Origin: Clostridiales bacterium
GTDB lineage: Bacteria > Bacillota > Clostridia > Lutisporales > Lutisporaceae
Assembly (NCBI GenBank): GCA_012521375.1
Contig: JAAYMO010000109.1
Location: 1,291 to 65,290 of the forward strand
Reading direction: 5' to 3'
Length of the DNA: 64,000 bases
Shown here: positions 9,372-51,618 of the stretch, piece by piece
How the letters are laid out: each line of letters begins with the position of its first letter
How positions within the stretch are numbered: position 1 is the first letter of the stretch
Notes under the pieces: model-generated
The model's database searches: none
Seen by the model: the letters and a program-made list of their open reading frames with translations, nothing else
Told to the model about the DNA's origin: nothing
Program-made: the position numbers and the translations under genes

Positions 9372-9418
9372 TAATAAAAGTCCATCTGTTTTGGCAATAA
9401 TTGCTCTACAGATGGACT
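9372..9418 (-). terminator. Intrinsic terminator of the aor leader, overlapping riboswitch P1
   Basis: Transcript AGTCCATCTGT-18 nt-ACAGATGGACT-TTTATTA; the first 4 nt belong to the P1 3' strand. Confidence 0.75.
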
Positions 9419-9500
9419 CCTTTGCACAATGGCAGGTATGGGCATTTCTACCCATGCCCTATCGTTCCAAGTCCTTTTCGGGCTCCTTGGAATCGGAGTC
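9415..9500 (-). ncRNA. Moco/Tuco (Wco) riboswitch no. 1, upstream of the aor operon
   Basis: Transcript GACTCC-GAT-TCCAAG..CTTGGA-ACGAT-AGGGCATGGGT-AGAAAT-GCCCATACCT-GCCATTGTGCAAA-GGAGTC; P1, P2, P4 with AGAAAT loop and P5 like the Moco RNA motif; no P3. Confidence 0.85.
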
Positions 9501-9850
9501 TATATATAGTTAAAAGTCATACATTTAATTAACTATTCTACATATATTTGCCAAGTCCTTTTAATATGACTAAAATATTTGAAAATTTTTTAAATTTTAT
9601 TTACTTATATTTAAATTTATTAAATGAGAAGGTAAACTAAATATGTATATGAAAAATATGTAGATTTTATAAAAATATTGTGGCAAAATGTAAGCTGTAT
9701 AATTTATGATTTAATAAATCAAGTTTTGATGAAAAGGGATAAGCATATAAAAGGTATTGGTGTGGACATGCTTATAACATTTGAAATGAGAAATGCAAAT
9801 ATTAAATAAAATATTTAAGCTTATTCAGTGAGGTATTAGGAGGTCATAGT

Positions 9851-24928: not shown

Positions 24929-25417
24929 TCACTGGACATTATACATTCCTTTGCTTTGCATGTACTTAAATATAGCTTCGCCGTGTTTTTGTTCTTCCTT
25001 TTGTATATGGTTCAGTACATCTCTAACTTGTGGATTACTGAATTCGAAAATAGCAGTATCGTAGGCTCCTGAAACATATTTTTCTGTCATCAGCATATCC
25101 GTACACATATCTGAATCTTTGGTAGTTCCGTTGAACTGCTGCGTATTGCCCATATTGCCGCTAGTGCTTTGGGTTCCAGTATTTTGAGCTGAACCTTGAT
25201 TCTGCTGCTGATTCATTTGTGGAAGCTTTCCGCTTAGTAATTGATTGATGCTGTTAAGATGATTTCTTTCTATCTGGGCATTATTATTGAATATTTGCTT
25301 TAGCTGCGGGCATTGAGTTTGATTTGCATAGTTTGTATACTTTTCTATACAAATCTGTTCATGTTTTTTTTGGTCTTCCAATAACATTCTTTCTTTCTGC
25401 GATAATTGTAATTGCAT
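24929..25417 (-). CDS. Ferritin-like spore coat protein (Coat F-like)
   Basis: LSQKERMLLED...EKY, Q/N-rich linker, DMLMTEKYVS, LNHIQKEEQKHGE. Confidence 0.75.
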   Translation of the reverse strand: MQLQLSQKERMLLEDQKKHEQICIEKYTNYANQTQCPQLKQIFNNNAQIERNHLNSINQLLSGKLPQMNQQQNQGSAQNTGTQSTSGNMGNTQQFNGTTKDSDMCTDMLMTEKYVSGAYDTAIFEFSNPQVRDVLNHIQKEEQKHGEAIFKYMQSKGMYNVQ

Positions 25418-25476
25418 ATGCTACACCTCCAATACTATTTTGTATAAATTTCACTATTTTATACAATAAAGGAGGG

Positions 25477-26673
25477 TTACATAGCTTTTTTTATAGCATT
25501 TTCGATACTTTTTATAAAACCTTTGCTGGTTTTTGTTGCGCCACTTATAACATCTGCTTCAATTCTTTGTTTTCTTATTATCTCTTTAGGAAGCACCATA
25601 AAAACTTCTTCATACCAGCCCCTGCTTTCATGATGATCCAGGACTGTTATATCCACTATTTTCCCATTTTCAATTCTCACTTCTGTGATGATTCTCGCAG
25701 CAAAGCCTTTTGCTTCACCTTGGTATACTCCGTCTTTCAGATTGCTAAGAGGAATGCTGCTTATCATAGAAGTTCCACCAAAAACCTTAGGCATCCCTAA
25801 CCAAATTACGAAGAACAATATAAACATTAAAGCAATATAATTCTTTGATGATATATTTTTTCTTCCTGATTTTAATCCTAAATTGGTATCTTCATTTATT
25901 TTACAATTACCTATACACTCCAGACATCTGATACATTCAGGAGATATGGAATCTTCCTTTGGTGAAAGTTTCAATGCCATAGTGCAGCTATTAAGGCACC
26001 CATTGCAGTGAATGCAGCTTTTACTCTGTTTAATTGAAATCAGGCTGAAGGAACTAAAAAGGGTTTGGGCTGCACCTAAGGGACAAAGGTACCTACAGAA
26101 AAATCTCGGTATAACTGCTGAGACAATAAATATACCAGCCAGTACCGCAAATCCTGTTTTCATTACTTTCCATGCAGAAAACAGTTTCGGTATGTTCAAC
26201 ATGGCTCTCCAAGGTGAGAATTCTGCTATTGTTGCACCATAGCCTAATATGGATGCCAGCAGAACAGCCAATAATATTGGGTATTTGGTATAAAGAGGAT
26301 TAAAATCTTTTTTTCCTAAACCATTATGTTTAGAGAAAACAAGTTTTTTGCCAATCCAATTTGATATATCCTGTATCGTTCCTATAGGACATATCCAACC
26401 GCAAAAGAACCTTCCTCCTGCAATAGATATTACCAATATGGATATTGTCAGTGCCATGCTTCTGTTTATGCCATCAAATTCATAACTGCTGTCGTTTAAA
26501 GATTCTTTTAGGGCACTCCAAGCTCCATAAGGATTCAGGTCTCCTATGCTTATGATTTTAAAATTGACCAGTTGGCTTGTATAAAGATTATATTGTATTA
26601 ATACTAGTAACAGTAAGACTAAAATAGCAATTTGTATGCTTGTCCTAATGTTTTTACTTCTATTTTCCTTCAT
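25477..26673 (-). CDS. Membrane 4Fe-4S protein (NapH/NosR/YccM-like) with C-terminal FMN-binding domain
   Basis: GRFFCGWICPIG, RFFCRYLCPLGA, CIHCNGCLNSC, CIRCLECIGNC; DGVYQGEAKG...ADVISGATKTS. Confidence 0.88.
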   Translation of the reverse strand: MKENRSKNIRTSIQIAILVLLLLVLIQYNLYTSQLVNFKIISIGDLNPYGAWSALKESLNDSSYEFDGINRSMALTISILVISIAGGRFFCGWICPIGTIQDISNWIGKKLVFSKHNGLGKKDFNPLYTKYPILLAVLLASILGYGATIAEFSPWRAMLNIPKLFSAWKVMKTGFAVLAGIFIVSAVIPRFFCRYLCPLGAAQTLFSSFSLISIKQSKSCIHCNGCLNSCTMALKLSPKEDSISPECIRCLECIGNCKINEDTNLGLKSGRKNISSKNYIALMFILFFVIWLGMPKVFGGTSMISSIPLSNLKDGVYQGEAKGFAARIITEVRIENGKIVDITVLDHHESRGWYEEVFMVLPKEIIRKQRIEADVISGATKTSKGFIKSIENAIKKAM

Positions 26674-26692
26674 AATCCATTACTTCCTAATA

Positions 26693-28270
26693 TTAGTTTT
26701 TGCTTATCTTCGCTATATCTTTGATATAGGTTTCTCCAATGATTGCATCTGCTCCCTTTTCCACAGGCAGTAGATAGGAACTATCCAATTGATTTGGATT
26801 TATATCATATTGTTTCCCATCAGAATCAAATAGAGTTAAAGTATCGTTGTCTTCTATAATCATACCTGCTTCCTCTAAAACTTCTCCTAAATTCATACCC
26901 TTGCCTTGGGGCAGGTCTTCTTCACCGATAACCTTCATCATTATCTCAGGGAAAATAACAGCATCTTTAGTGGTTGAGAAATGGCTCATTTCCTTGACGT
27001 TCATGCCCAACTTGAAAGCCGGACCTATGTTCATAGGTGCATTTTCACCGCCGGTTTTTATATAATACCTATCTCTTACCATGCTGATGGTTTCATTCTT
27101 TACCAGGCCATCTGAACCTACCATGGTGAAAAAGCCATTCACATCTACATAGTCAAATTTGGATAATATTTTACCTACTAAGTAGGACTCATCTTTGCTG
27201 CCGTAATATTCATAGTAATAAGGTTCTATGTCTTTAACAATGGAACTGAATATATGGACATTTTGTATGTCTTTAGGTGAAATATGGGTATAAAGCTCAA
27301 TTCTATTGACCATTTTAACCCAGTATACTCCCATCTCATCGGGTATCACTACTCTTACCGGCTTTTCTTCCCTGATTATTTCTTCATCATCAAACCTGAT
27401 GCCCAGGATAATGTCTCTATTTTGTATAATGTCTTTGCTTATCATAGTGTAATAGTTGTCTCTACCTGTGACGCCTATGGCTTCATAATCATTGATATCT
27501 ATGCCGTGTTTTTCCAATACATCTTTGAGAAGAGGACCCTCAGCTTTAATATCTATTTTAACCCCGGTTGTTCTTTGCAGTATAGTTTGAGTTGTAACCT
27601 GGGGAAAGGTCTTCAAATCTTCGATATTTACCCTTACGGAGTTATTTTCAGGCCAAGCTATCAAAAAGCTGTTTTCATCCTTATCCCACATTTCCTGTGG
27701 GATAAAGTTTTCAACCGGATCCATGGTTTTATTGTTGACAAGATAATTCCAAGCACCTATAGCTGAATTCACATTGTTGATTACAGCTTGGCTGGATACG
27801 CTGGCTCCTGTAACCTGAACTATATCGGTAGGTTTTTCAGGGTCTAACACTACTCTGTTTAGATATTCAAATAGTTCTAAACCTTTAAATCTATCGGTAA
27901 ACCAGCTTTCCATAATAGGGTCAGCATAGTCAGGAGTGTCTCCCTGTTCGAGAATATGTATTCCTGCAATTTGTTTCTTTTCATTATCCATGACCACCAA
28001 AGTTTTTATGATTCCTTCATAGCCGGTTCCTGAAGCTACAAAAGCAGCAGGTATATTATCTATACTATATATTTTTTCAACGCCAGGAAAATTTTCCTTT
28101 ATTATGAGATTGTCTAAGGCTCCATCAATAAGTTTTATAGTTGTTGCTGTTGGCAGTATTTCCTTTATCAAGGCTTTTTCCTTTCTTGTGTCATTGTTTA
28201 ACCATAAAGCTGCAGATATTATTGTTACGATTATGATGAGAGTTAATATATAGATCATATTTTTTTTCAT
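26693..28270 (-). CDS. Membrane-anchored protein: RnfG-like FMN-binding domain plus sulfite-oxidase-fold (Oxidored_molyb-like) domain and two degenerate repeats
   Basis: N-terminal TM; SGTGYEGII...ETP-like GDTPDY...FTDRFKG...DIVQVTGASVSS; then EDLKTFP...EGPLLKDVL...GRDNY...PVRVVIP...WVKMVNRIEL. Confidence 0.75.
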   Translation of the reverse strand: MKKNMIYILTLIIIVTIISAALWLNNDTRKEKALIKEILPTATTIKLIDGALDNLIIKENFPGVEKIYSIDNIPAAFVASGTGYEGIIKTLVVMDNEKKQIAGIHILEQGDTPDYADPIMESWFTDRFKGLELFEYLNRVVLDPEKPTDIVQVTGASVSSQAVINNVNSAIGAWNYLVNNKTMDPVENFIPQEMWDKDENSFLIAWPENNSVRVNIEDLKTFPQVTTQTILQRTTGVKIDIKAEGPLLKDVLEKHGIDINDYEAIGVTGRDNYYTMISKDIIQNRDIILGIRFDDEEIIREEKPVRVVIPDEMGVYWVKMVNRIELYTHISPKDIQNVHIFSSIVKDIEPYYYEYYGSKDESYLVGKILSKFDYVDVNGFFTMVGSDGLVKNETISMVRDRYYIKTGGENAPMNIGPAFKLGMNVKEMSHFSTTKDAVIFPEIMMKVIGEEDLPQGKGMNLGEVLEEAGMIIEDNDTLTLFDSDGKQYDINPNQLDSSYLLPVEKGADAIIGETYIKDIAKISKN

Positions 28271-28280
28271 GATTAGCTCC

Positions 28281-29042
28281 TCATTCTATGATTATTTTTA
28301 CAATATTTTGTACCCATTGAGGCTTGTTAACATCACCAGGCTCTTTTTGACCAATTACCAGTCTAAAAGGGGCCCCTTTATTGGGATCGTAATCTTTACC
28401 GTTTTCATGCCATGCGATTATCACAGGATATCTCTTTTCCGGATTATGTTCGTCTATATAGTCTTCCTTCAGGGTTTGTTCTACAGACATTTCGTGTTTA
28501 TATCCATCTGATGCTATGAAAGTGATGGTAGAAGCACTATCTTTTAAAATTCCTTTATCCAAAATTGCTTTTATCTTTATTCCTTTAAAGTGGAAGTATT
28601 CTTCAGTGCCGTAGCTGTTAAGTGAAAAGAAGTCATCTTCATAATAAGCATCTTTCATGGATTTTAGTTCATCAAGAGAAAGTGTTATTGGATTTTCTAT
28701 ACCAGAACCTTCGATATGTAGGAGTGTTTTTTCATCTGGCTTTGTTTGAGGCGTTTCTTCTGGAAGTTTTTCTGGCTGTTGGGATTTTGGTTTCTCAGCC
28801 TCAGATATAGTATCTGTATCAGATGTAGTTTCTTCGGGTTTCTCTACAGTAGTTTCATCCTGCTTTGAAGTTTCTACATCTGTTTTATTTTCATCTTGAA
28901 TATTTTTATCTGATTCCTCTACTTGCTGAGTTTCGCCGGCTTCTTCAGCGTTTGGAGCAGAAGGGGTATTCGATGAACATGCTGTTAAAAGGATTAAGGA
29001 TAATATTAAGACAAATAATATAAATAAAGTTTTATTTTTCAT
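28281..29042 (-). CDS. Lipoprotein with a low-complexity linker and one Oxidored_molyb-like domain
   Basis: Lipobox LTAC; E/T/K/P-rich linker; LHIEGSGIENPITLSLDELKSM...FKGIKIKAIL...FIASDGY...IIAWHENG...GAPFRLVIGQ...WVQNIVKIII; no Cys in the domain. Confidence 0.8.
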   Translation of the reverse strand: MKNKTLFILFVLILSLILLTACSSNTPSAPNAEEAGETQQVEESDKNIQDENKTDVETSKQDETTVEKPEETTSDTDTISEAEKPKSQQPEKLPEETPQTKPDEKTLLHIEGSGIENPITLSLDELKSMKDAYYEDDFFSLNSYGTEEYFHFKGIKIKAILDKGILKDSASTITFIASDGYKHEMSVEQTLKEDYIDEHNPEKRYPVIIAWHENGKDYDPNKGAPFRLVIGQKEPGDVNKPQWVQNIVKIIIE

Positions 29043-29065
29043 AATTCACCTCCGTGTGAAAGAGC

Positions 29066-29092
29066 GGAGCAAGCAGATGGACTGCCTGCTCC
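29066..29092 (-). other. GC-rich intergenic stem-loop between the SLH-protein gene and the lipoprotein gene
   Basis: Transcript GGAGCAGGCAG-TCCAT-CTGCTTGCTCC (11 bp, one G-U pair); no U-tract in the sense direction. Confidence 0.7.
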
Positions 29093-29103
29093 TTGTTTTT
29101 GTA

Positions 29104-32100
29104 TTACATTTTTTCCATTATCATTCTTATGATCTTAGAAGCTTCAGCCCTGGTAGATTGACCTTGAGGATCAAAACTACCATCAGGCTTGCCATTTATA
29201 ATTCCTGACAGTTGAACAGCTTTTACTGCATCTTTAGCCCATTCACTGATGCTGGAAGCATCTGTGAATACTATTTCTTCAGCAACTGTTCCTAGTTCTA
29301 TTCCCATAGCTTTTGCAAAATTGTATATAGTCACAGCCATTTCTTCTCTAGTTATTACATCATTTGGACGGAAATTGTCATTTTCAACACCTGCAGGAAT
29401 ATTTTTTGCACCAGCCCAATTTACATAATCTGTATACCATTGGCCGTCTTCTATGTCTTTGAATATTCCAGTGGAAGCTGAACCCAAATCTATATCCTTG
29501 AGAGTGCTTACCAGGAACTTGATAAATTCTGCCCTTGTAAGTGTATTATTGGGGCTGAATTTATTGTCTCCTGTACCTTCTGTTATACCTTTGGAATATA
29601 AGTATTCTATATGTTCTTGTGCCCAGTGACCAACTATGTCGATGAAAGAAGCATCAGACGCAGCTGTTACATTGCCATCAACAACGACCTTAACCACATT
29701 TTTCAAGCAAGCTCCTTGATTCATGTGAGTGATCATTCTTATAGGACCGCCTTCGTTTCCACTGGTATAACCATCACTGGATGTATCAGGAACCAATGGG
29801 TTTCCGTCTCCTGCATAGGCTAGAATTATTATCTTTCTTTCCAGTCCATCAGCTATTCCTTTTTCTAGAGCTTCTTTACCGAATACGGATAGAACATCTC
29901 TTGAGAAGCCATCCGAAGCTATAACTTTTACAGATGTAAGTTCTGCGCCTTTCTTCAATCCTGCTTTCTGGGAGATAAGCTTCCATAGGTCAAGACCTTC
30001 ATGTTGATGTTCACCTATATAGGTATAGCTATCTCTGATTATTATATCGTCCATAGCTTCTAATTCACGCAGACTGAATTTCACTGGTTTTTCCAGTGCA
30101 GTTCCTTCTAATTCAAGGAAATAAGTGTCCAAGTATTGGCTATAGGTTGGACTCATATCGTGTTTCCAACTGGTTGTAGCACCTGCATTTACGGTTATTT
30201 TTACTACATTTTTTAATATGCTTTGGGAGTTCATATCATCTGCAGATTTTTGTCCAACAACTAGGTATAATGGACCACCTGAGTTGTTGTATGCAGGGTC
30301 ATATCCTTTGGAATCCTTATCCAATACCAATGGTTTACCGTCATCTATATTGGCATTGTCTACGCTGCTGGAACCATAGGCCAATATCATCTTCAAGTCA
30401 GCTGCTTTTGTTGCTCCGTTAATATAATCTGATTTCATCACATCGGATAATGAGAAAGTTAGAGTTTTGCCGTCTGCTGCGGTTACCACTATTTCGCTTG
30501 CATTGGATTGAAGGCCTACATCTTCAGATTTTAAGAAGCTGTATAAATCTATACCTCTATATCTGATTTGGTCTTCTGATGCAGCTTTTTTAATGTTATA
30601 GTCACCTGTTACTACAAGGTTTTGTTTGCCTTCTATCTCAGAAACTTTAAAGGTTTTAGGTGTAGTTAGTTTTGCTCCTGGACCTTCAACTATCAAAGTG
30701 CTGTCAGCCAACTCTTTGTAAGGAGCTTCTATATGGGCATATTTATCTGGTTGGAGATTTATCTTAATAGAGGTTACACTACTTAAACTTTTAGCTTCAG
30801 ACATTACTACCATCAATGGGCCGCCATCATTTTTCACATTTACTTTTTCACCGGTACCATCTGTATATGAGCTTATATAACCTGCAGCATTTTTATCAGC
30901 TACCATAGGTGTACCGTTTTTAGCAAATGCTAGCGCAGATTTCTTATTTGCATCAAAAATTTCATCCAGTGAAACTGTCAAGTTTGAGTCAGCGCTATTA
31001 AATGTAACTGTTCCTTTGTTGCCCGGTATTTGAACTTTTTCTTTTAAGAAATAACTTAAGTCTACACCTTCATATAGATCGCTGTATATGTTGTCACCTT
31101 TTTTCACATCGAAGAATGATTTTACCTTAGCTTTTACTTTTTCTGTGTTCCTTACATTCGAACCGTAAATCATATTTTCTATGTTTTCTACAGTGAAGGT
31201 TTCATTCTTTAAAGTACTTCCATCCATGCCTATTACTGTTACGTTTATCTTTTCTGAAGCTAGATCTTTGTAGATCTTATCCGGATTTCCAGAGTGGGTA
31301 CTATAGTTTACATCATTGCCTACTATTATTTTATCAAGGAATTTTGCCTGTTTTGAACCGTTGGCATGATGGTATTCAATTTTTCCAGATATAATTCTTA
31401 ATGGTCCACCGTCATTACCTAAACCGCTCTTGTAGCCATCGAGGGTATTCCTTATCACATAAGGATATCCATTAACTCCATAGGCAACTAACACTGGATA
31501 ACCAATGGACCTCAGATCATCTTCAATCCTGGAAATATATTTGCCGTCATTTTGGTCAGCAGGATTCTTTTCATAATATCCGAATAAATCTGGATCGGAT
31601 ATTTGAGCTATTGTGAATTTATCAAAATCTGTATATCCATCTGTTGCAGTAAAATGAACTAATGTATCAGAATCCGCTCCAATTGCCATTGTTTCAGGAA
31701 TTCCTGCCTTTTTCAACAGTTCCCAAAGCTTTACTCCCTCATATTCATTTACATACCAATATGTGGAGTTTGATAAGCTATATTCAGCCCTATAGCCCAT
31801 ACCATTAGGATCTGGTTTGCCTTCTTTATATTTTACCATGTCTTCTAGTTGCTTTACAGTATAGTTGACTTCTCTTCCCAGCTTATCTCCTGTTATGGTA
31901 ATGATGTACTCAGAGTTTTCAGGAGTATTATAAGGTGCTTTATCATGCTTATAGCCTGGAGTTTCCTTTTCGGCTACATAAACATATGCCATATTGCCGA
32001 ATTTTGTATAGCTAGGATTTGGATCTTGCTTGAATACAGATTTATCGTAAACTAATTTTATGCATCCATCTTCGTTGCCTAAGGTTTTATCTCCGCCTGC

Positions 32101-33651
32101 TTCTCCATCATAGACGAATGGTTTAGCATTAGAGCCATCAAGGTTTGATGTTCCATAAGCCACTATTATGGGTTTGCCTGCAGCTTCTGCTTGTTCAATT
32201 TCTTCCAGAGTAAATTCAGCTATAGTCTGCCTTACCCTGTTTTTTATAAGAACTTTATAAGCTGTATTTGTTAGCTTAATGCCTGTCTCACCTGAAGTCA
32301 TATTTTTTAGCAGGTGCTGAAGTCTTATTCCTTCATATTTAAGAGTGGTTTCTTTACCATCTCTTATGTCCGTATAATCTCCACGGAAAACTCCTGCATC
32401 TTGATTTTCCATCTCTCTTATTGAAAGGGGTATACTAGCCTCAAGACCTGGGCCTTCAAAGGTCAATGTTGCTCCCGTTATAACATCTACATTGTATGGT
32501 TCGTCTCCTGGCAAGCCGCCGTTTGTTATGTGTTTATAAGGGCTTTTTGAAAAATCAGTGCCGGAAACAGGAGTCACTTTTATTTCATTTACCATTTTTA
32601 TTAAAGAACCATTTTGGCTGTAAATTCTAAAGTATCCTACTATTGAAGGATCATCTTTGGCAGTATCATATACCGCCTCTGTATCATTAGCATTAGTTCC
32701 TGTTTCATATACAAGTATGTATTGTTTCGATGAATCTTTGATTTCTCCTATAGTTACAGGGTCATTTTTATAACCGTCGGCAGATATGAATTCTACCTTA
32801 TCATTATCGCTATAACCTGCAAGCAGATCCTTTAGAGGTACACCTACACAGTAATCTGCTGTTGGTCCTGATTTTCTCATGTAGGTCCAGTTGCCTTTTA
32901 CCCTTGGCATCAGGAGAATATCTTCTCTTGTATAGCTTTTGCTTCCTATTTTTAATACATCAGGAAGCTGGTCACCTACGACTATTTTCTGTATTGTCTT
33001 GTTATAAAGAGGATTATTGATTTCGTCTACATGTTGCTGCCCAACCATCAACAGTGGATAATCACTAGCTGAAAGAGCTTCCAGTGAAGATTCTTTTGGT
33101 ATTACATCCGGATTGCCTCTGTCACCTGCTCTTTCAAAGGCAATAATTGTATCAACTGGAATCTTGCCAGTGGAATCGCCACTGCTAAGTCTTGGGAAGT
33201 AATATCTCTCTAAGCCTAAGGATGGAGTGATTAACTTCTTTGAAGTAGTAGAATCTCCTTTATGAGAAGGATCAAAAGTAACTGTATACCCGTCGGATGC
33301 TACAAAGCCGATTTTATACTGGTCATACTTGTCCTTTTTTAAGCCAGATTTATTGAGCAAATCCTCTACCTTAACACCTTTACCCAAATAAATGCTTTTT
33401 GTGGGAGTAGTATTTATGGCAGAAAATAATGCTGTGGTTTGCGGCATTGACTTCAGTTCTTCCAGTGTATAGGACTTTTCATTTGTCAAACCAATGCCTT
33501 GACCTGTCACTACTAAAATAGGTTCTTCTGTATTTGGCTTCCATTCTTCAGCGAAAGCAATGGTTCCCAATGATGAGATTATTAAGGATAAGATAATTAT
33601 AAAAGACAAACTCTTTCTGAATAAAGCTTTCATGTTATAATACCGATTCAT
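29104..33651 (-). CDS. 1515-aa SLH-anchored surface protein with 7 tandem Oxidored_molyb-like domains
   Basis: Signal peptide (AFA|EE); seven repeats of the pattern L.V.G..FTL.EL..M / EGV.L..LL / A.DG[YF] / I.AY..G.P / [ND]GGP.R / KNV.KI.V; three SLH domains (about 29646-29104: FIDIVGHWA..TRAEF, FKDI..QWY..TREEM, FTDA..EWA..TRAEA). Confidence 0.85.
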   Translation of the reverse strand: MNRYYNMKALFRKSLSFIIILSLIISSLGTIAFAEEWKPNTEEPILVVTGQGIGLTNEKSYTLEELKSMPQTTALFSAINTTPTKSIYLGKGVKVEDLLNKSGLKKDKYDQYKIGFVASDGYTVTFDPSHKGDSTTSKKLITPSLGLERYYFPRLSSGDSTGKIPVDTIIAFERAGDRGNPDVIPKESSLEALSASDYPLLMVGQQHVDEINNPLYNKTIQKIVVGDQLPDVLKIGSKSYTREDILLMPRVKGNWTYMRKSGPTADYCVGVPLKDLLAGYSDNDKVEFISADGYKNDPVTIGEIKDSSKQYILVYETGTNANDTEAVYDTAKDDPSIVGYFRIYSQNGSLIKMVNEIKVTPVSGTDFSKSPYKHITNGGLPGDEPYNVDVITGATLTFEGPGLEASIPLSIREMENQDAGVFRGDYTDIRDGKETTLKYEGIRLQHLLKNMTSGETGIKLTNTAYKVLIKNRVRQTIAEFTLEEIEQAEAAGKPIIVAYGTSNLDGSNAKPFVYDGEAGGDKTLGNEDGCIKLVYDKSVFKQDPNPSYTKFGNMAYVYVAEKETPGYKHDKAPYNTPENSEYIITITGDKLGREVNYTVKQLEDMVKYKEGKPDPNGMGYRAEYSLSNSTYWYVNEYEGVKLWELLKKAGIPETMAIGADSDTLVHFTATDGYTDFDKFTIAQISDPDLFGYYEKNPADQNDGKYISRIEDDLRSIGYPVLVAYGVNGYPYVIRNTLDGYKSGLGNDGGPLRIISGKIEYHHANGSKQAKFLDKIIVGNDVNYSTHSGNPDKIYKDLASEKINVTVIGMDGSTLKNETFTVENIENMIYGSNVRNTEKVKAKVKSFFDVKKGDNIYSDLYEGVDLSYFLKEKVQIPGNKGTVTFNSADSNLTVSLDEIFDANKKSALAFAKNGTPMVADKNAAGYISSYTDGTGEKVNVKNDGGPLMVVMSEAKSLSSVTSIKINLQPDKYAHIEAPYKELADSTLIVEGPGAKLTTPKTFKVSEIEGKQNLVVTGDYNIKKAASEDQIRYRGIDLYSFLKSEDVGLQSNASEIVVTAADGKTLTFSLSDVMKSDYINGATKAADLKMILAYGSSSVDNANIDDGKPLVLDKDSKGYDPAYNNSGGPLYLVVGQKSADDMNSQSILKNVVKITVNAGATTSWKHDMSPTYSQYLDTYFLELEGTALEKPVKFSLRELEAMDDIIIRDSYTYIGEHQHEGLDLWKLISQKAGLKKGAELTSVKVIASDGFSRDVLSVFGKEALEKGIADGLERKIIILAYAGDGNPLVPDTSSDGYTSGNEGGPIRMITHMNQGACLKNVVKVVVDGNVTAASDASFIDIVGHWAQEHIEYLYSKGITEGTGDNKFSPNNTLTRAEFIKFLVSTLKDIDLGSASTGIFKDIEDGQWYTDYVNWAGAKNIPAGVENDNFRPNDVITREEMAVTIYNFAKAMGIELGTVAEEIVFTDASSISEWAKDAVKAVQLSGIINGKPDGSFDPQGQSTRAEASKIIRMIMEKM

Positions 33652-33741
33652 AAACCATCCTCCTATTATTTAATTAATATTTTCTACTATTATTAATTAC
33701 TTATATATCAACATCACCTCTCAACGAATTTTCAAGAGAAT

Positions 33742-33773
33742 AAAAAAACTTCTTTTGTGGAAAAGAAGTTTTT
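33742..33773 (-). terminator. Leader terminator of riboswitch no. 2
   Basis: Transcript AAAAACTTCTTTT-CCAC-AAAAGAAGTTTTTTT. Confidence 0.8.
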
Positions 33774-33780
33774 ATACTTT

Positions 33781-33887
33781 GTTACTCCTTTTCACACCGG
33801 AAGGCATTGCAGTTTCCCACAATACCCTATCGTTTTAATCATCATGCAAATAATTACTTGTTTAGATGAATAAAATCGGAGTAGCAT
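33781..33887 (-). ncRNA. Moco/Tuco (Wco) riboswitch no. 2, upstream of the SLH-protein operon
   Basis: Transcript TACTCC-GAT-P2-ACGAT-AGGGTATTGTG-GGAAAC-TGCAATGCCT-TCCGGTGTGAAAA-GGAGTA; antiterminator AAAAGGAGT/ACTTCTTTT possible. Confidence 0.82.
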
Positions 33888-33937
33888 GCCATATTTTATT
33901 GTAAAAACTATCTATTACTAATTATAATGTTAATCAT

Positions 33938-34576
33938 CTAACAATGCAAGTTATGCAGATGTTTTCCTCTGCGCTTTTTAGCTTCATTCTTACTGTTACG
34001 AAGGAAAAGCCCCATTCTCTGTAATTTCATACCAGAGTATTTTTCATAACTTTGTAAAAAGCGTCTTATCATCTCATGTTTTTCTTTTGTAAAAGAAGGG
34101 TTGTTTGTCAGTATAAAAAAGCAAACATTAGCCAGATCAGTCCTAGCATCTCCCCAATTAATTTCTTCAAAGTCCAATCCATATATTTCACCTTTGCTGT
34201 AGATGAAGTTTCTTAAATTTACATCTCCTTTAAGCAATGTATTAGAATTCTTAGATATTTTGTGCAATTGGGAAAACCATAGTGCCAATTTATCAATCCA
34301 TACTCCCGTATCTAATCTTTCTACTAAGTCATTGATCAAATCTCCTTCTATATACTCCATAATCAAACGGTTTTTATCTTTACAGATTATTTTAGGCAAA
34401 TTGATTCCATAATCATAAAGCATTTCTATATTACGATATTCTATATCAAGAAGCTTTTCTTTGTCTGAGGAGAATACCTTCATAATTGCTAACTGATTTT
34501 TTTCTTCTTTATCAATTCTTATCTTATATACCTGATTTCGTTTGCTATAAAGTTTAGCAAGTATTTTTATATTCAC
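33938..34576 (-). CDS. Protein-kinase-like (APH/RIO/Kdo-type) small-molecule phosphotransferase
   Basis: SKRNQVYKI, MKVF, E.RNI, LIMEYIEG, LKGDVNLRNF (His replaced by Lys), GLDFEE; GTG start overlaps the mobB TGA (GTGA). Confidence 0.7.
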   Translation of the reverse strand: MNIKILAKLYSKRNQVYKIRIDKEEKNQLAIMKVFSSDKEKLLDIEYRNIEMLYDYGINLPKIICKDKNRLIMEYIEGDLINDLVERLDTGVWIDKLALWFSQLHKISKNSNTLLKGDVNLRNFIYSKGEIYGLDFEEINWGDARTDLANVCFFILTNNPSFTKEKHEMIRRFLQSYEKYSGMKLQRMGLFLRNSKNEAKKRRGKHLHNLHC

Positions 34577-35076
34577 TTGTCCAACACCCAATCCAATGCT
34601 ACTTTTTCCACCAAATCTGTAAGCCTTTCAATATCGGTAATGGCATTTATTACAGGAAGATGATCATAGCGACATATTTTGTTGCTGATAACGCCGCTTA
34701 ATGCAACTACACCAGTTTTCATATATTTTTTTATATCTTCTACTGATTCAACACAAAGTATTTTGGGAACATCAAAATCTGTAACTCCTTCCAATATCAC
34801 ATAATCCTGTGTATAGAAATTTAAAACCTCCGGCATGGGAAGTCTTCTTTTAAACAATATGTCCGTTTCATAAATCCCTCTGGCGGATACCAGTTCTGCT
34901 CCTGCTTTCCAATGTCTGTATGTATTAGTGCCTTCCGTATCAATGGCAAATTTTTCATAATGGATTTCTTTAACTGTGCCTACAGAATAACTTCTACGAT
35001 TTAATTCTTTTATGAGGCATTCTACTGTTGTGGTTTTGCCAGAACCTGAATATCCATAAATTGATATGACTTTCAT
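34573..35076 (-). CDS. mobB: Molybdopterin-guanine dinucleotide biosynthesis protein B
   Basis: VISIYGYSGSGKTT, VGTVKEIH, DTEGTNTYRHWKAGA, ILEG. Confidence 0.88.
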   Translation of the reverse strand: MKVISIYGYSGSGKTTTVECLIKELNRRSYSVGTVKEIHYEKFAIDTEGTNTYRHWKAGAELVSARGIYETDILFKRRLPMPEVLNFYTQDYVILEGVTDFDVPKILCVESVEDIKKYMKTGVVALSGVISNKICRYDHLPVINAITDIERLTDLVEKVALDWVLDK

Positions 35077-35128
35077 ATACTCGCCTCCTTTGAATTCAGG
35101 GAATTGTATTTAGAGCTTAAATCAACTT

Positions 35129-35854
35129 TTACCAAGATGTTGAAACAATGGCAATTAAAAATATCAATGTAACCACTATAATAGCATAATCTCCTTTTTT
35201 CATATTTAATTTGCGGTAATAGGTTCTAGTAGAATAGGCTCTAAAACCTCTGCATTCCATGGATAAAGATATAAATCTGGCTCTTCTCAATGCTTTTATC
35301 ACAGAAGGGGTCAATATATATGTATATAGGGAAATCTTTTTACCTAGGGGTATTCTTTTTAAGTCAGCCCCTGCCAGTTGGACTGCTATTATGGAGTCAA
35401 TAAACTCTTCTTTAATGAGAGGCAGAAATTTAATTGCAAGAAGAACCATAAATCCAATTTCTTGAGGCATCTTCATGGCTGCAAGTCCATATACCATATC
35501 CATAGGAGATGTGATTAGAATTATCAAAGCTGAATAAATTATTATAGACATTCTCAAGATTATTGATATGCCTGTTTCCAAGCCTTTAGTAGTTAAAATT
35601 TCTATGCCACCGAGAGCCAACAAAGGTTCCCCGCCATGAGTAAAGATGCTTTGAACTAAAGCCAGCACGATAAATACATACCATAATCTTTTAAGTCTCA
35701 TCGTAGCTTTTTTTAAAGATATAGATAATAACATGCATATTGCCAACGTAAGGGTCAATAGCAGTAATAGCGACTTTATCTCTTTCAATATTATTGCTGC
35801 AGATGAGATAAAAAACACAATTACGATTCGAGTCCTGGGATCTAAGTCGATCAT
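35129..35854 (-). CDS. ECF transporter transmembrane T component
   Basis: LDPRT, KFLPLIKEE, SMECRGF; CbiQ/EcfT architecture. Confidence 0.88.
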   Translation of the reverse strand: MIDLDPRTRIVIVFFISSAAIILKEIKSLLLLLTLTLAICMLLSISLKKATMRLKRLWYVFIVLALVQSIFTHGGEPLLALGGIEILTTKGLETGISIILRMSIIIYSALIILITSPMDMVYGLAAMKMPQEIGFMVLLAIKFLPLIKEEFIDSIIAVQLAGADLKRIPLGKKISLYTYILTPSVIKALRRARFISLSMECRGFRAYSTRTYYRKLNMKKGDYAIIVVTLIFLIAIVSTSW

Positions 35855-36510
35855 ATGACTTCAACTCCTTTTGAACTTAAAATAAGGAGTTTGTCAACAT
35901 ATTTTTCAAGAAAATTTGGCTCATGGCTTATTATCATAAAACCTTTTTTTTCACTTTTCAATGTCAGAAGACATTTTTCCAATTGCTTTTTCCGTAGTAT
36001 ATCAAGACCGATGGTAGGTTCATCCATTATCAAATAATCCACATTTCTTGATAATACTGAAGCCAATGCCAGCCTTTGTTTTTCTCCCCGGCTCAGCTTC
36101 ATAGGAGAATCATTTTTATACTTTTCCAATTCAAATAGATCAAGATAATAATTTATTCTATCCTCCATATCTTGATTATCGATTTCGTTTCCATATATAA
36201 AGCTAAAGCTCATCTGCTCCCAAACTGTAGGACAGAATAATTGTTTTTCAGGGTTTTGGAACACATATCCAATCTTACACCCTATTTGGGATAAAGGTAT
36301 GTCTCTAACATTTTGGCCTTCAAGAAGGATTGTTCCTTTCTGAGGTTTTAATATTCCTAACATCAGCTTAATCAAAGTAGTTTTACCGCAACCATTTTCT
36401 CCTATTAATCCTATATGTTGATTTTTCTCTATTACAAAACTAATATTTTTTAATAAGCTAGTATTCTTGTTGTAGGAAAAAGCCAGAGAGTCTATTATAT
36501 AAAAGCTCAT
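35851..36510 (-). CDS. ECF transporter ATPase (A')
   Basis: GENGCGKTT, VFQNPEKQLF, LSRGEKQR, MDEPT; start re-assigned to ATG 36510 by RBS GAGGT. Confidence 0.88.
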   Translation of the reverse strand: MSFYIIDSLAFSYNKNTSLLKNISFVIEKNQHIGLIGENGCGKTTLIKLMLGILKPQKGTILLEGQNVRDIPLSQIGCKIGYVFQNPEKQLFCPTVWEQMSFSFIYGNEIDNQDMEDRINYYLDLFELEKYKNDSPMKLSRGEKQRLALASVLSRNVDYLIMDEPTIGLDILRKKQLEKCLLTLKSEKKGFMIISHEPNFLEKYVDKLLILSSKGVEVI

Positions 36511-37201
36511 TGTTGTCATCAACCTCAATTCTATCTTCAATGTTCCCATTTTTCATAAGCAAAATACTGTTTGCTACCATCAAATTTTTGATGCTATGGT
36601 CTATGATAATAATTGTTTTTCCAGCTTTATTGAGGGATTTTATTACACTTATTATTAATTTTTTATTTTTCCTATCCAATTCAGATAGCACTTCATCCAG
36701 TATTATTATTTCAGGATCCAGGCTTAGAATCGATGCCAATGCTACTAGATGTTTTTGGCCTCCAGAAAGTTGAGAAGGGTTTTTGTATCTTAAAGATTCA
36801 ATGCCTAACATGTCAATAACTTTTTCAACCCTTTTTTCAATCTCTTCATAAGGAAGGCATAGATTTTCCGGAGCAAAGGCTATTTCAGCTTCAACGGTAG
36901 GGAGAAACAGCTGATTGTCCACATCTTGAAACACCATGCCTACTTTCTGGGCTAAATTGGGAAGATTTAAATTTTTTATATCCTCTCCTTCTATAATGAT
37001 ACTTCCATCTATTATGCCCGGCATGCTTTTTGGTATAGCTCCGCATAAGCAGAAGGCTAATGTGGTTTTGCCGCAGCCGCTTAAGCCTGCAATGGAGGTT
37101 ATGGTTCCTTTTTCAATTTTAAAACTGATGGAGTTGAGAATAAGAGGGCTATTTGCTGTATATTTGAAAGATAAATCTTTTACTTCAATTATAGGTTTCA
37201 T
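36458..37201 (-). CDS. ECF transporter ATPase (A)
   Basis: GLSGCGKTT, VFQDVDNQLF, LSGGQK, LDE. Confidence 0.88.
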   Translation of the reverse strand: MKPIIEVKDLSFKYTANSPLILNSISFKIEKGTITSIAGLSGCGKTTLAFCLCGAIPKSMPGIIDGSIIIEGEDIKNLNLPNLAQKVGMVFQDVDNQLFLPTVEAEIAFAPENLCLPYEEIEKRVEKVIDMLGIESLRYKNPSQLSGGQKHLVALASILSLDPEIIILDEVLSELDRKNKKLIISVIKSLNKAGKTIIIIDHSIKNLMVANSILLMKNGNIEDRIEVDDNNELLYNRLSGFFLQQEY

Positions 37202-37710
37202 TCTATTGTTACCTCAAATACATATTTGCACCATCGCTGGCTGAAAGAATCTTTAACTATTATAAGCTGAAAGGGACCACTACCTCCTTTTTTCAAAGTG
37301 CCTAAAGGTTTACCGTCTTTTTCAAATGCCAAATAAACATGATCCGATAAGGCTTCATCTACAGACATAGCTATGACATATCCGTCTAAACCTTTTACCA
37401 GTACCTTTGAAGCAGATTTCAATGCTGAATCATCTATGTCTGCTTTATTCAATAGATCTTTTAATAAGACGCCTCTATATTTTCTCGATTTAGGGCCGGA
37501 GGTAGAGGTATCTTCGGTGGCTTTAAATTGATGATTTTCTAAGGCAGTGATTTCTTCAAAGTTGAGGCTTGCAGTTTCATCACTCCAAACAAAGGTTATG
37601 GTGCCATCTTCCATACTCGGGTTGTTCATGGTTTTCATATTCGCATATGCCAGTGTAAGCGTTGCTATGGCTAATATGGCTATTATCAATACCAATTTAT
37701 TATTTATCAT
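37198..37710 (-). CDS. Membrane-anchored single Oxidored_molyb-like domain protein within the ECF operon
   Basis: N-terminal TM; LNFEEITAL...YRGVLLKDLL...GLDGY...YLAFEKDGKPL...GPFQLII...RWCKYVFEVTIE. Confidence 0.75.
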   Translation of the reverse strand: MINNKLVLIIAILAIATLTLAYANMKTMNNPSMEDGTITFVWSDETASLNFEEITALENHQFKATEDTSTSGPKSRKYRGVLLKDLLNKADIDDSALKSASKVLVKGLDGYVIAMSVDEALSDHVYLAFEKDGKPLGTLKKGGSGPFQLIIVKDSFSQRWCKYVFEVTIE

Positions 37711-38251
37711 ATATATCACCTTGTTTTCTTATAGTTTTAACAATATTGTAAGCTATGAGGCCTCCCAGTCCCCCTGATAATGATGCTGCACTTAGAGAAA
37801 GGAGCAAGGGAATTAGCGGCAAGCGAAAGAATACCATATTTGACAACATAGTACCGGATATATTGGCCAGCAGGCCTAATATAAAGAAGCCTGCCGGGGT
37901 TATGAACTTGTTTCCCAACAATTTGGCTCCTATATCTATCAAAATACCTGGCACTGTATATGTTATGATGCTTATAGCACCATGGTTTCCATAGGCCCCT
38001 GTGATTATTACCAATAAAGCTTGAGTTATGCCAATTAAGCTTCCAGTACCAATTTTTTTAGTGAGGCCTAATCCTAAGACTAACCATAGCATATAAAAGC
38101 CACCTGCAGCAGCACCCCCTGGGATGTAAAGAGGACCTGTTATTATATGAACTAAAGGTACAATAATCGGTTTTATGGCTATACCTAAAGCGGCGGTCAA
38201 GGATATGACTACCAATTCAAACATAGAGAATTTATTCAAAAATTTGCTCAT
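37700..38251 (-). CDS. ECF transporter substrate-binding S component (substrate unknown)
   Basis: 183 aa, about 6 TMs, N-terminal A-x-x-x-A-type helix (SLTAALGIA), Gly-rich KKIGTGSLIG; directly upstream of ECF A, A' and T genes. Confidence 0.8.
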   Translation of the reverse strand: MSKFLNKFSMFELVVISLTAALGIAIKPIIVPLVHIITGPLYIPGGAAAGGFYMLWLVLGLGLTKKIGTGSLIGITQALLVIITGAYGNHGAISIITYTVPGILIDIGAKLLGNKFITPAGFFILGLLANISGTMLSNMVFFRLPLIPLLLSLSAASLSGGLGGLIAYNIVKTIRKQGDIYDK

Positions 38252-38270
38252 ATTACACCTGCTTTTTATA

Positions 38271-51180: not shown

Positions 51181-51618
51181 ATGGAAGGAAAAATTTTAGC
51201 TGTAAATATCAGTGAAAAAAAAGGAGTGCATAAGACTCCTGTAGAAGAAGGATATTTCAAAGTAGATCATGGACTAGTGGGAGATGCTCATGCAGGTAAT
51301 TGGCATAGACAGGTGAGCCTTCTTGGAATTGAAAGTATGAACAAAATGAAGGCTATAGGAATAGAAGGTTTATGTACCGGAAAATTTGCTGAGAATCTTA
51401 CTACTGAAGGTATAAAATTATATGAACTTCCTGTAGGTACTAAGCTCCAAATCGGTGATACCATTCAAGAAGTTACACAGATAGGCAAGGAATGCCATGT
51501 AGGCTGCGCTATTTTTCAGCAGATTGGCGACTGCATAATGCCTAGGGAAGGAATTTTTACAAAAGTTTTGAAAGAAGGAACTGTAAAACCGGGCGATGTT
51601 ATTAAAGTCATTGAATAG
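51181..51618 (+). CDS. MOSC-domain protein
   Basis: GLVGDAHAG.WHRQVSLL, FAENLT, QIGKECH...C...CIMPREG. Confidence 0.88.
   Translation: MEGKILAVNISEKKGVHKTPVEEGYFKVDHGLVGDAHAGNWHRQVSLLGIESMNKMKAIGIEGLCTGKFAENLTTEGIKLYELPVGTKLQIGDTIQEVTQIGKECHVGCAIFQQIGDCIMPREGIFTKVLKEGTVKPGDVIKVIE

Follow-up and report, generated by a model that had tools for sequence, protein, structure and literature searches.

An ECF operon with a pterin-binding-like accessory protein under Moco/Tuco riboswitch control: a candidate cofactor salvage system in Clostridia

We analyzed a 64,000-nucleotide window of DNA from a Clostridiales bacterium of the family Lutisporaceae (contig JAAYMO010000109.1 of assembly GCA_012521375.1, positions 1,291–65,290 of the forward strand; coordinates below are window positions). 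The subject is a minus-strand operon that encodes an energy-coupling factor (ECF) transporter behind a riboswitch of the molybdenum cofactor/tungsten cofactor (Moco/Tuco) class. We consider it likely that this operon salvages the Mo/W-pterin cofactor, either Tuco or Moco or a very close derivative, from outside the cell by ECF import. We document which genes are present, how their products fold, how widely the gene block is conserved, how the riboswitches are wired, the phyletic pattern, and RNA contigs that cover the operon in situ; what is transported, in which direction, and what the accompanying phosphodiesterase, kinase, MobB and redox module do are inferred.

The operon is led by an RF01055 aptamer (39356–39238, minus strand) that scored 76.2 bits against a gathering score of 36 and matched model positions 1–135 with the P3 stem deleted. 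Nine genes were counted in the operon, and the eight itemized here all lie on the minus strand. Between the riboswitch and the S gene sits an NPP-type phosphodiesterase (39239–38271; PF01663, E = 2.7e-18), an ecto-phosphodiesterase/nucleotide pyrophosphatase from the alkaline-phosphatase superfamily that is anchored in the membrane at its N-terminus. It is followed by the ECF S component (38251–37700; PF09819), a membrane-anchored, Cys-less SUOX-fold accessory protein that we call ACC (37710–37198; PF00174), the ATPases EcfA (37201–36458; TIGR04520, E = 3.5e-60, and PF00005) and EcfA' (36519–35851; TIGR04521, E = 3.1e-49), and the transmembrane coupling component EcfT of the CbiQ family (35854–35129; PF02361, E = 7.5e-21, and TIGR02454). 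Past EcfT the operon runs on into MobB, a cytoplasmic P-loop protein of Moco maturation (35076–34573; TIGR00176, 85 bits, above cut-off, and PF03205), and a small APH/RIO-like kinase with a GTG start (34576–33938; PF01163 and PF01636). The initial annotation had described S, a membrane-anchored Moco-fold protein, A, A' and T as overlapping genes under a Moco/Tuco riboswitch; these five genes, their coordinates, the PF00174 protein between S and the ATPases, and the riboswitch were all confirmed. Its gene range was right from S to T and omitted the phosphodiesterase, MobB and the kinase.

We read the gene junctions directly from the sequence. S and ACC overlap by 11 nt, ATGA stop/start overlaps join ACC to EcfA and EcfA' to EcfT, and a GTGA overlap joins the GTG start of the kinase to the MobB stop. 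The overlap of EcfA and EcfA' (36458–36519), which are in different frames, is far longer than the 4-nt overlaps of this operon: about 62 nt from the ATG at 36519, or 53 nt if the ATG at 36510 is used. The start at 36519, with a GAGG Shine-Dalgarno (SD) sequence ahead of it, is the likely one. The parts of a group I system are complete, with EcfT and two EcfA-type ATPases adjoining S in overlapping genes, and the operon encodes a dedicated (group I), translationally coupled ECF transporter, probably an importer.

The S component was placed by its fold. Its AF2 model (pLDDT 87) has six long helices, and a Foldseek search returned YkoE (5edl; TM-score 0.71, 17% identity) as the best match in the PDB, followed by RibU, ThiT and HmpT. 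The match to PF09819 was 27 bits against a cut-off of 25.2. A profile of the S family matched no S component in the PDB at E values up to 10, so that only the fold search placed it. The family is well conserved, with 980 database relatives and 42 positions invariant among 56 aligned. No thiamine pyrophosphate (TPP) riboswitch was found in the window, where Rfam detected only RF01055 and a T-box, and relatives carry Moco riboswitches. We concluded that this protein is the S component of a new subfamily, remotely YkoE-like and not a YkoE ortholog.

ACC resembles pterin-binding proteins more than enzymes. All 56 orthologs adjoining EcfA have an N-terminal anchor and either no Cys or one, none of them conserved; an alignment of 43 orthologs likewise held no conserved Cys, and several orthologs are wholly Cys-free. 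The Cys that ligates Mo in the SUOX family (sulfite oxidase, YedY/MsrP) is therefore lacking, and the alignment to SorA begins past the Cys hairpin. The ACC model (pLDDT 91) matched the Moco domain of SorA, chicken sulfite oxidase and YedY in Foldseek, and the best whole-length structural matches were the PruR entries 7kom, 7kos, 7kp2 and 7rkb (TM-scores by target 0.63–0.75). A profile of the ACC family also gave a PruR structure, 7kom, as its best PDB match (E = 1.7e-4). PruR is a periplasmic, Cys-less SUOX-fold pterin binder that was crystallized with neopterin stacked on a Tyr and hydrogen-bonded to an Asn (PMC11194511). The invariant Asp109-Gly-Tyr111 (DGY) of ACC aligns with the Asn-Asp-Tyr (NDY) of PruR, which holds these pterin-contacting Asn and Tyr residues. 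ACC also has a Trp in an SQRW motif, which may or may not correspond to the stacking Trp of PruR, and the PW motif is absent.

Judged from its sequence and model, ACC is best described as an anchored, PruR-like, putatively pterin-binding extracytoplasmic domain, neither an enzyme nor a CbiN-type component. The initial annotation had pointed to CbiN-type accessory proteins as a parallel, and this was not borne out: CbiN is a small two-helix membrane protein, whereas ACC consists of a single anchor helix and a 145-aa PF00174 domain. In 45 of 57 loci the gene for ACC stands between those for S and EcfA, and the ECF class is typically without an extracytoplasmic solute-binding protein. Such a protein departs from the typical group I architecture and does not exclude membership in that group.

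The window holds four short (110–125 nt) copies of RF01055. Besides the ECF leader, one copy (44363–44482, plus strand) precedes tupBCA-like genes, two moeA genes, moaA and a MOSC-domain gene, with moaC just upstream. A second copy (9510–9401, minus strand) precedes a ferredoxin gene and an AOR-type tungsten enzyme. A third (33893–33769, or 33742–33893 with its intrinsic terminator, minus strand; 75.5 bits) lies directly downstream of the kinase and heads an operon of surface proteins that include an SLH-anchored one. The P3 columns are deleted in the two alignments shown, those of the tup and ECF leaders, and the short length of all four copies fits an absence of P3. It has been proposed that RNAs without P3 are of the Tuco type and those with P3 of the Moco type (Regulski et al. 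2008, PMC2408646). The same study noted P3-lacking Moco RNAs before 'sulphite oxidase' genes in S. wolfei, a location that it left unexplained. The MOSC-domain gene of the window (51181–51618) stands after moaA.

The four leaders differ in how they are predicted to respond to ligand. In the tup/moa and SLH-operon leaders the terminator is separate from the aptamer, and its 5' arm (UCCUUUC and ACUUCUUUUC, respectively) is complementary to the 3' core of the aptamer and the P1 3' strand. In the SLH-operon leader the antiterminator would be formed by GAAAAGGAGU, in the 3' part of the aptamer, pairing with ACUUCUUUUC of the terminator. Without ligand the antiterminator can form, and with ligand P1 and then the terminator form, so that both leaders should be OFF switches. 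In the AOR leader, by contrast, the 5' arm of the terminator (GUCCAUCUGU) overlaps the P1 3' strand GGAGUC; ligand should therefore prevent termination, which makes an ON switch. ON-type terminators of this sort were seen in the window (9401–9510, minus strand) and at L024:2955–3069, opposite to the supply operons in the same genomes. The ECF leader in the window carries a GAGGA SD sequence directly after the P1 3' strand, with the start codon of the phosphodiesterase at 39239, and no terminator was found when this leader was read from the sequence. It is probably a translational OFF switch. In six related loci the orthologous ECF leaders do carry a terminator, whose 5' arm is GCAGUUUCCUUU, and these are of the OFF type.

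Most of the S-system leaders outside this operon were likewise OFF-like. Among 63 leaders of S systems, 35 were OFF-like, 17 had weak complementarity, four had a terminator overlapping P1 and were ON-like, and seven had no terminator. The three AOR leaders comprised two ON-like leaders and one without a terminator; none was OFF-like or weakly complementary. Of the 52 S-system leaders with a separate terminator, 67% reached a complementarity of −9 kcal/mol, compared with 4% for shuffled arms. An OFF-type leader has the operon expressed when cofactor is scarce, as expected of acquisition genes. By their predicted leader structures, S systems are regulated like supply genes and unlike the enzymes that consume the cofactor.

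We scanned for relatives of S with one genome per species, which gave 523 S-positive genomes, and fetched 80 loci. Open reading frames in these loci were labeled by BLASTP against the window proteins. Riboswitches were sought with a covariance model built from three of the window copies with the Rfam structure transferred (a MAFFT alignment of all four copies was poor). A recurrent block emerged, consisting of a riboswitch, SUOX-fold and FMN_bind genes (sometimes with NapH-like or ApbE genes), S, the phosphodiesterase, ACC, EcfA, EcfA', EcfT, MobB and the kinase. The block was found in Lutispora, Tissierellales, Alkaliphilus, Clostridium, Desulfoscipio, Sporotomaculum, Pelotomaculum, Syntrophomonas, Limnochordia and Halanaerobiales, and the recurrence of this arrangement is far beyond chance. 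Of the 57 loci that extend 6 kb or more past S on its downstream side, EcfT was present in 53, ACC in 45, MobB in 40, the phosphodiesterase in 32 and the kinase in 31. A proven unrelated substrate combined with a lack of Moco riboswitches elsewhere is not what the S family presents. A same-strand riboswitch lies upstream of S in 38 of the 59 loci with at least 4 kb upstream. Outside the window, 64 of 65 riboswitch matches were on the strand of the S gene. An Rfam scan of the first five homolog loci (Syntrophomonas and Pelotomaculum paralogs and a truncated Tepidimicrobium locus) found no riboswitch. One locus (L090:1–19901, from genome G119) carries on a single strand SLH/SUOX-fold genes, S, ACC, EcfA, EcfA', EcfT, ApbE, NusG_II, Hpre_diP_synt_I, moaC, moaA, MOSC, tupABC and moeA, with riboswitches before the first SLH gene and before moaC.

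We compared the presence of S with that of the cofactor genes. The window genome has moaA, moaC, two moeA genes and tupABC, and at least nine AOR-family matches. A class sample of 300 Clostridia genomes, evenly drawn and at least 90% complete, contained 18 S-positive genomes. MoaC was found in 16 of these 18 (64 of 301 class-wide), as was AOR (40 of 300). MoaC was missing in 6 of 50 S-positive genomes reached through the loci and in genome G157 of the class sample, making seven, and no match to MoaA or MoeA was found in any of these seven. Six of them encode one to four AOR enzymes each, and the seventh (G011) encodes three XDH-family and two DMSOR-family enzymes. To these we add G216 (100% complete), which has a distant S homolog (29% identity, E = 3.7e-29) and in which no MoaA, MoaC or MoeA was found. 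A TupA homolog was found in none of the eight genomes and was present in four prototrophic S-positive controls. Because MoeA and TupA are both missing in the eight genomes, the species imported there should already carry its metal.

The setting of the system in two of these genomes is informative. In G157 (96% complete, 10 contigs), RF01055 matched at one place only, immediately ahead of the S operon, and the one AOR gene detected is adjacent. In G216 the sole genome-wide match lies directly before a pair of S and ACC-like genes, with a P3 stem present and the SD sequence inside the P1 3' strand, and the only DMSOR-family enzyme gene found lies 2.7 kb away. The G216 locus (L089:9793–10978), in which S and a 156-aa ACC-like protein stand behind the P3-containing riboswitch without EcfA or EcfT genes of their own, looks like a group II version of the system. 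A cofactor sensor that is kept in a non-synthesizing genome and controls only the transporter is the classical signature of a salvage importer. The argument from these genomes rests on context and not on frequency, namely a lone riboswitch, a lone enzyme gene beside the system, and four genes that are missing together. Two caveats apply: biosynthesis genes are often clustered, such that one missing contig in a draft could remove several of them, and related genomes are non-independent samples.

MoaE (PF02391), the large subunit of molybdopterin (MPT) synthase, was not found in the window genome (97% complete) and had no match in 36 of the 50 S-positive genomes. Class-wide, MoaE matched in 16 of 301 genomes, compared with 64 of 301 for MoaC, in 16 of the 64 MoaC-positive Clostridia and in 8 of the 18 S-positive genomes, with matches of only 28–40 bits. 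Either MoaE has diverged strongly in the Clostridia or its task falls to a different protein. We rejected the idea that the S system replaces MPT synthase, as the absence of MoaE is class-wide and S-positive genomes are if anything richer in it.

The enzymes encoded with the transporter suggest how salvage might proceed. In its translation the phosphodiesterase keeps the metal-ligand and nucleophile motifs of NPP enzymes (DGLGYD, PTITD..TG, DDFAHKYGP and SDHGM), and its N-terminus, MNKKILFFSIIALASFFAGILIF, is a membrane helix; we took the start at 39239, as a longer reading frame from 39314 would overlap the aptamer. The kinase has a GDVNLRN catalytic loop and a DFE motif, and belongs to a family of uncharacterized mini-kinases in the Atlas. 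Outside the membrane, the anchored phosphodiesterase would trim nucleotide or phosphate groups off released cofactor. The anchored ACC would bind the pterin and pass it to S, and surface SUOX-fold domains might also bind released cofactor. EcfT and the two ATPases would power S, and the cargo would be imported at the cost of ATP. Inside, the small kinase, which we propose from its sequence re-phosphorylates the imported pterin, and MobB would re-activate the cofactor and hand it on to apo-enzymes, AOR among them. When cofactor is plentiful, the riboswitch would shut the operon.

Beside the ECF operon lies the surface module (25477–33651, minus strand), whose four proteins were identified by Pfam as a 1515-aa SLH-anchored protein with several Cys-less PF00174-like SUOX-fold domains, a SUOX-fold lipoprotein, an FMN_bind–SUOX-fold protein and a NapH-like Fe-S/FMN_bind membrane protein. 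The FMN_bind–SUOX protein (P0121) has no Cys, and the sole Cys of the lipoprotein (P0122) is that of the lipobox. In many relatives the surface-module genes and S belong to one operon. The surface SUOX-fold proteins, fed with electrons by the flavin and Fe-S proteins, probably capture cofactor at the cell surface; one idea is that the flavin/Fe-S module keeps or makes the pterin reduced, or releases it from carrier proteins. In the other direction, a full-length T-box leader (39665–39878, plus strand, 135 bits) precedes an isoleucyl-tRNA synthetase-like gene (39921–43025) and is divergent from the ECF operon.

Both operons are represented in RNA. Metatranscriptomes of biogas fermenters and sludge reactors contain as much as 69% of the words sampled from the operon. 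Of the RNA contigs mapped to 25400–45300, some span the junctions kinase/MobB, EcfA'/EcfA and EcfA/ACC/S, with a depth of roughly 3–6. The SLH gene is covered by a single RNA contig (29050–33908, about 48x) that takes in the riboswitch and stops at the riboswitch 5' edge. In four metatranscriptomes this gene was recovered as a single contig at about 20–50x, roughly tenfold above its neighbors, with the 5' end at 33897–33908, just upstream of the riboswitch and downstream of a TATAAT-like box. A tenfold contrast in depth between neighboring genes speaks for RNA rather than contaminating DNA, and suggests that the surface SLH protein is strongly expressed in situ.

Several observations weigh against cofactor salvage. 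The window genome makes its own cofactor, and uptake is thus not essential there. Auxotrophy was not enriched with S in the class sample, where MoaC was missing in 1 of 16 AOR-positive genomes with S and in 3–4 of 24 without it, and we rejected such an enrichment; moreover, three genomes of the sample (G109, G192 and G268) are AOR-positive, yet no MoaC, S homolog or Moco riboswitch was found in them. The OFF call for the ECF leader of the window depends on the position of the SD sequence and on orthologs, and among the S-system leaders 17 riboswitch platforms are ambiguous and four ON-like. Some members of the S family (about 60% identity) have no riboswitch nearby (Syntrophomonas L001 and L084, Pelotomaculum L006 and L027) and adjoin either ApbE, NusG_II and Hpre_diP_synt_I or TrmO, a Se/S-carrier and a cysteine desulfurase; the cargo of these members may differ. 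ECF importers are normally without an extracytoplasmic binding protein, so the proposed hand-off is unprecedented, and free Moco is chemically labile. PruR is a binder of small pterins with a pocket too shallow for Moco (PMC11194511).

The nearest rival holds that the module imports something other than the intact, metal-loaded cofactor, such as a precursor or breakdown product (metal-free molybdopterin, cyclic pyranopterin monophosphate (cPMP) or a dephospho form) or another pterin, which is then converted in the cell. The vitamins that ECF importers carry are commonly unphosphorylated; the ligands of PruR-type proteins are small pterins and not Moco, the pairing of a phosphodiesterase outside with a kinase inside suggests that a trimmed species crosses the membrane, and prototrophs such as the window genome keep MoeA and could metallate imported MPT. 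However, the eight S-family genomes without MoaA, MoaC, MoeA and TupA could not convert cPMP or metallate MPT with known enzymes, and the class of riboswitch follows the metal-specific cofactor, with no P3 in AOR genomes and P3 in G216, where the pterin enzyme detected belongs to the DMSOR family. We regard non-intact cargo as unlikely. A second rival is that the system takes up metal in species unsuited to TupA or ModA (e.g., thio-tungstate or thio-molybdate), which the SUOX-fold proteins would bind or process. Co and Ni have ECF transporters of their own, with extra components, the operon is regulated like tupABC, and an extracytoplasmic redox module could process metal species. But S falls in the YkoE-like branch for organic ligands and not with CbiM/NikM, ACC resembles pterin binders, and metal alone would be useless to auxotrophs without MoeA or pterin synthesis, and we therefore give metal uptake hardly any credence.

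A further possibility is that the ECF module runs in reverse, as an exporter that loads Sec-exported SUOX-fold surface proteins with cofactor. Its appeal is that the ECF genes share operons with many extracytoplasmic SUOX-fold proteins and with flavinylation-type partners (FMN_bind, NapH-like and sometimes ApbE), and Listeria FmnA/EetB and RibU are reported to export FAD. In a study of Listeria, the extracytosolic trafficking of flavins for flavinylation is linked to distinct subunits of ECF transporters (PMC9973259). Nevertheless, genomes without biosynthesis keep the system and would have nothing to export; the riboswitches are predicted to silence the genes at high cofactor levels, opposite to what an exporter or cofactor-using enzymes would need; and all of the surface SUOX-fold domains lack the Mo-ligating Cys, making them unlikely enzymes awaiting cofactor. 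For these three reasons we rejected export, which we judge very improbable. It is scarcely more credible than metal uptake, and the same low standing as metal uptake applies to an extracytoplasmic pterin-sensing or redox system (PruR-like signaling or a novel reductase) beside an ECF transporter for an unrelated vitamin. PruR homologs do act in signaling, and some S members without a riboswitch adjoin ApbE/NusG_II/Hpre_diP_synt_I; on the other hand, no diguanylate cyclase or other signaling partner is present, and the coupling of ACC, S and EcfA, the presence of MobB, the riboswitch and the pattern of auxotrophs tie the transporter itself to the cofactor. We therefore return to salvage of the Mo/W cofactor by import. 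The remote likeness of S to YkoE, the Moco/Tuco riboswitches, the PruR-like ACC, the auxotrophs and the OFF wiring support the suggestion of the initial annotation that S represents a new class of S-component specificity, directed at a pterin cofactor and served by a dedicated hand-off protein.

To our knowledge, Moco has been treated as a cofactor that every user makes for itself, being too labile to share; the only uptake we know of is in nematodes, where no transporter has been identified. We found no described bacterial transporter of Moco, Tuco or molybdopterin in the full-text literature searched. A survey of the regulons of RNA motifs has no category for Moco uptake, and no Moco importer appears in a recent survey of the S-component fold. 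What appears new, as far as gene sequences can indicate, is an ECF importer with a new class of cargo, an extracytoplasmic binding partner and salvage enzymes. The stronger claim, that some bacteria live as true Mo/W-cofactor auxotrophs and that this ECF system, together with its surface pterin binders, ecto-phosphodiesterase, kinase and MobB, transports the intact, metal-loaded molybdopterin cofactor, we regard as an even call. It would imply that Moco/Tuco is cross-fed within communities of anaerobic habitats, with the flavin/Fe-S module perhaps re-reducing scavenged cofactor, or releasing it, on the outside of the cell. If cofactor salvage is correct, this would be the first ECF transporter with an extracytoplasmic binding partner. 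Salvage would account for the molybdoenzymes of genomes that have no moa and moe genes and shift how Mo/W auxotrophy is scored in metabolic models. Bacterial Moco/Tuco salvage would become directly testable, with an importer in hundreds of anaerobe genomes, several of them without biosynthesis genes, and there would be a handle for supplying cofactor to heterologous hosts that express W or Mo enzymes.

The proposed system has partial parallels in several known ones. NAD salvage in Haemophilus, with NadN and e(P4) outside, the importer PnuC, and NadR inside, shares the logic of trimming outside, importing, and rebuilding inside; it differs in that the protein families and the cofactor are unrelated, and in the present case the enzymatic steps are predicted ones. 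Uptake of dietary, protein-bound Moco by C. elegans provides a precedent for acquiring ready-made Moco, and organisms deficient in Moco synthesis exist. That example is an animal, whereas here a bacterial route with a defined candidate machine is proposed. The RibU system of Listeria carries flavin, reportedly outward, while the OFF riboswitches and auxotrophs described here point inward and to a pterin cofactor. Common to RibU with FmnA/EetB and to the present system are ECF parts genetically tied to extracytoplasmic redox proteins of the FMN_bind/ApbE type (PMC9973259).

The closest likeness of the transporter is to YkoEDC, the group I ECF system for thiamine/hydroxymethylpyrimidine in B. 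subtilis. Both have a dedicated operon of S, T and ATPase genes under a cofactor riboswitch, and both have the six-helix S fold, the present S matching the family PF09819 only just above its cut-off. They differ in that the riboswitch here is for Moco/Tuco and not TPP, that the S components share 17% identity and no sequence-profile match, and that the present operon has in addition an extracytoplasmic binding protein, an ecto-phosphodiesterase, MobB and a kinase. ACC is comparable to PruR of Agrobacterium, Vibrio and Klebsiella (7kos, 7kom and 7rkb), which is likewise a small, Cys-less SUOX-fold domain outside the cytoplasm with an aligned Asn/Asp-x-Tyr pterin-contact motif. Unlike PruR, ACC is membrane-anchored in Gram-positive bacteria and has no PW motif. 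The partner of PruR is a DcpA-type c-di-GMP enzyme, whereas the partners of ACC are S and EcfA/A'/T, and ACC is under a Moco riboswitch, its presumed ligand being the much larger molybdopterin cofactor.

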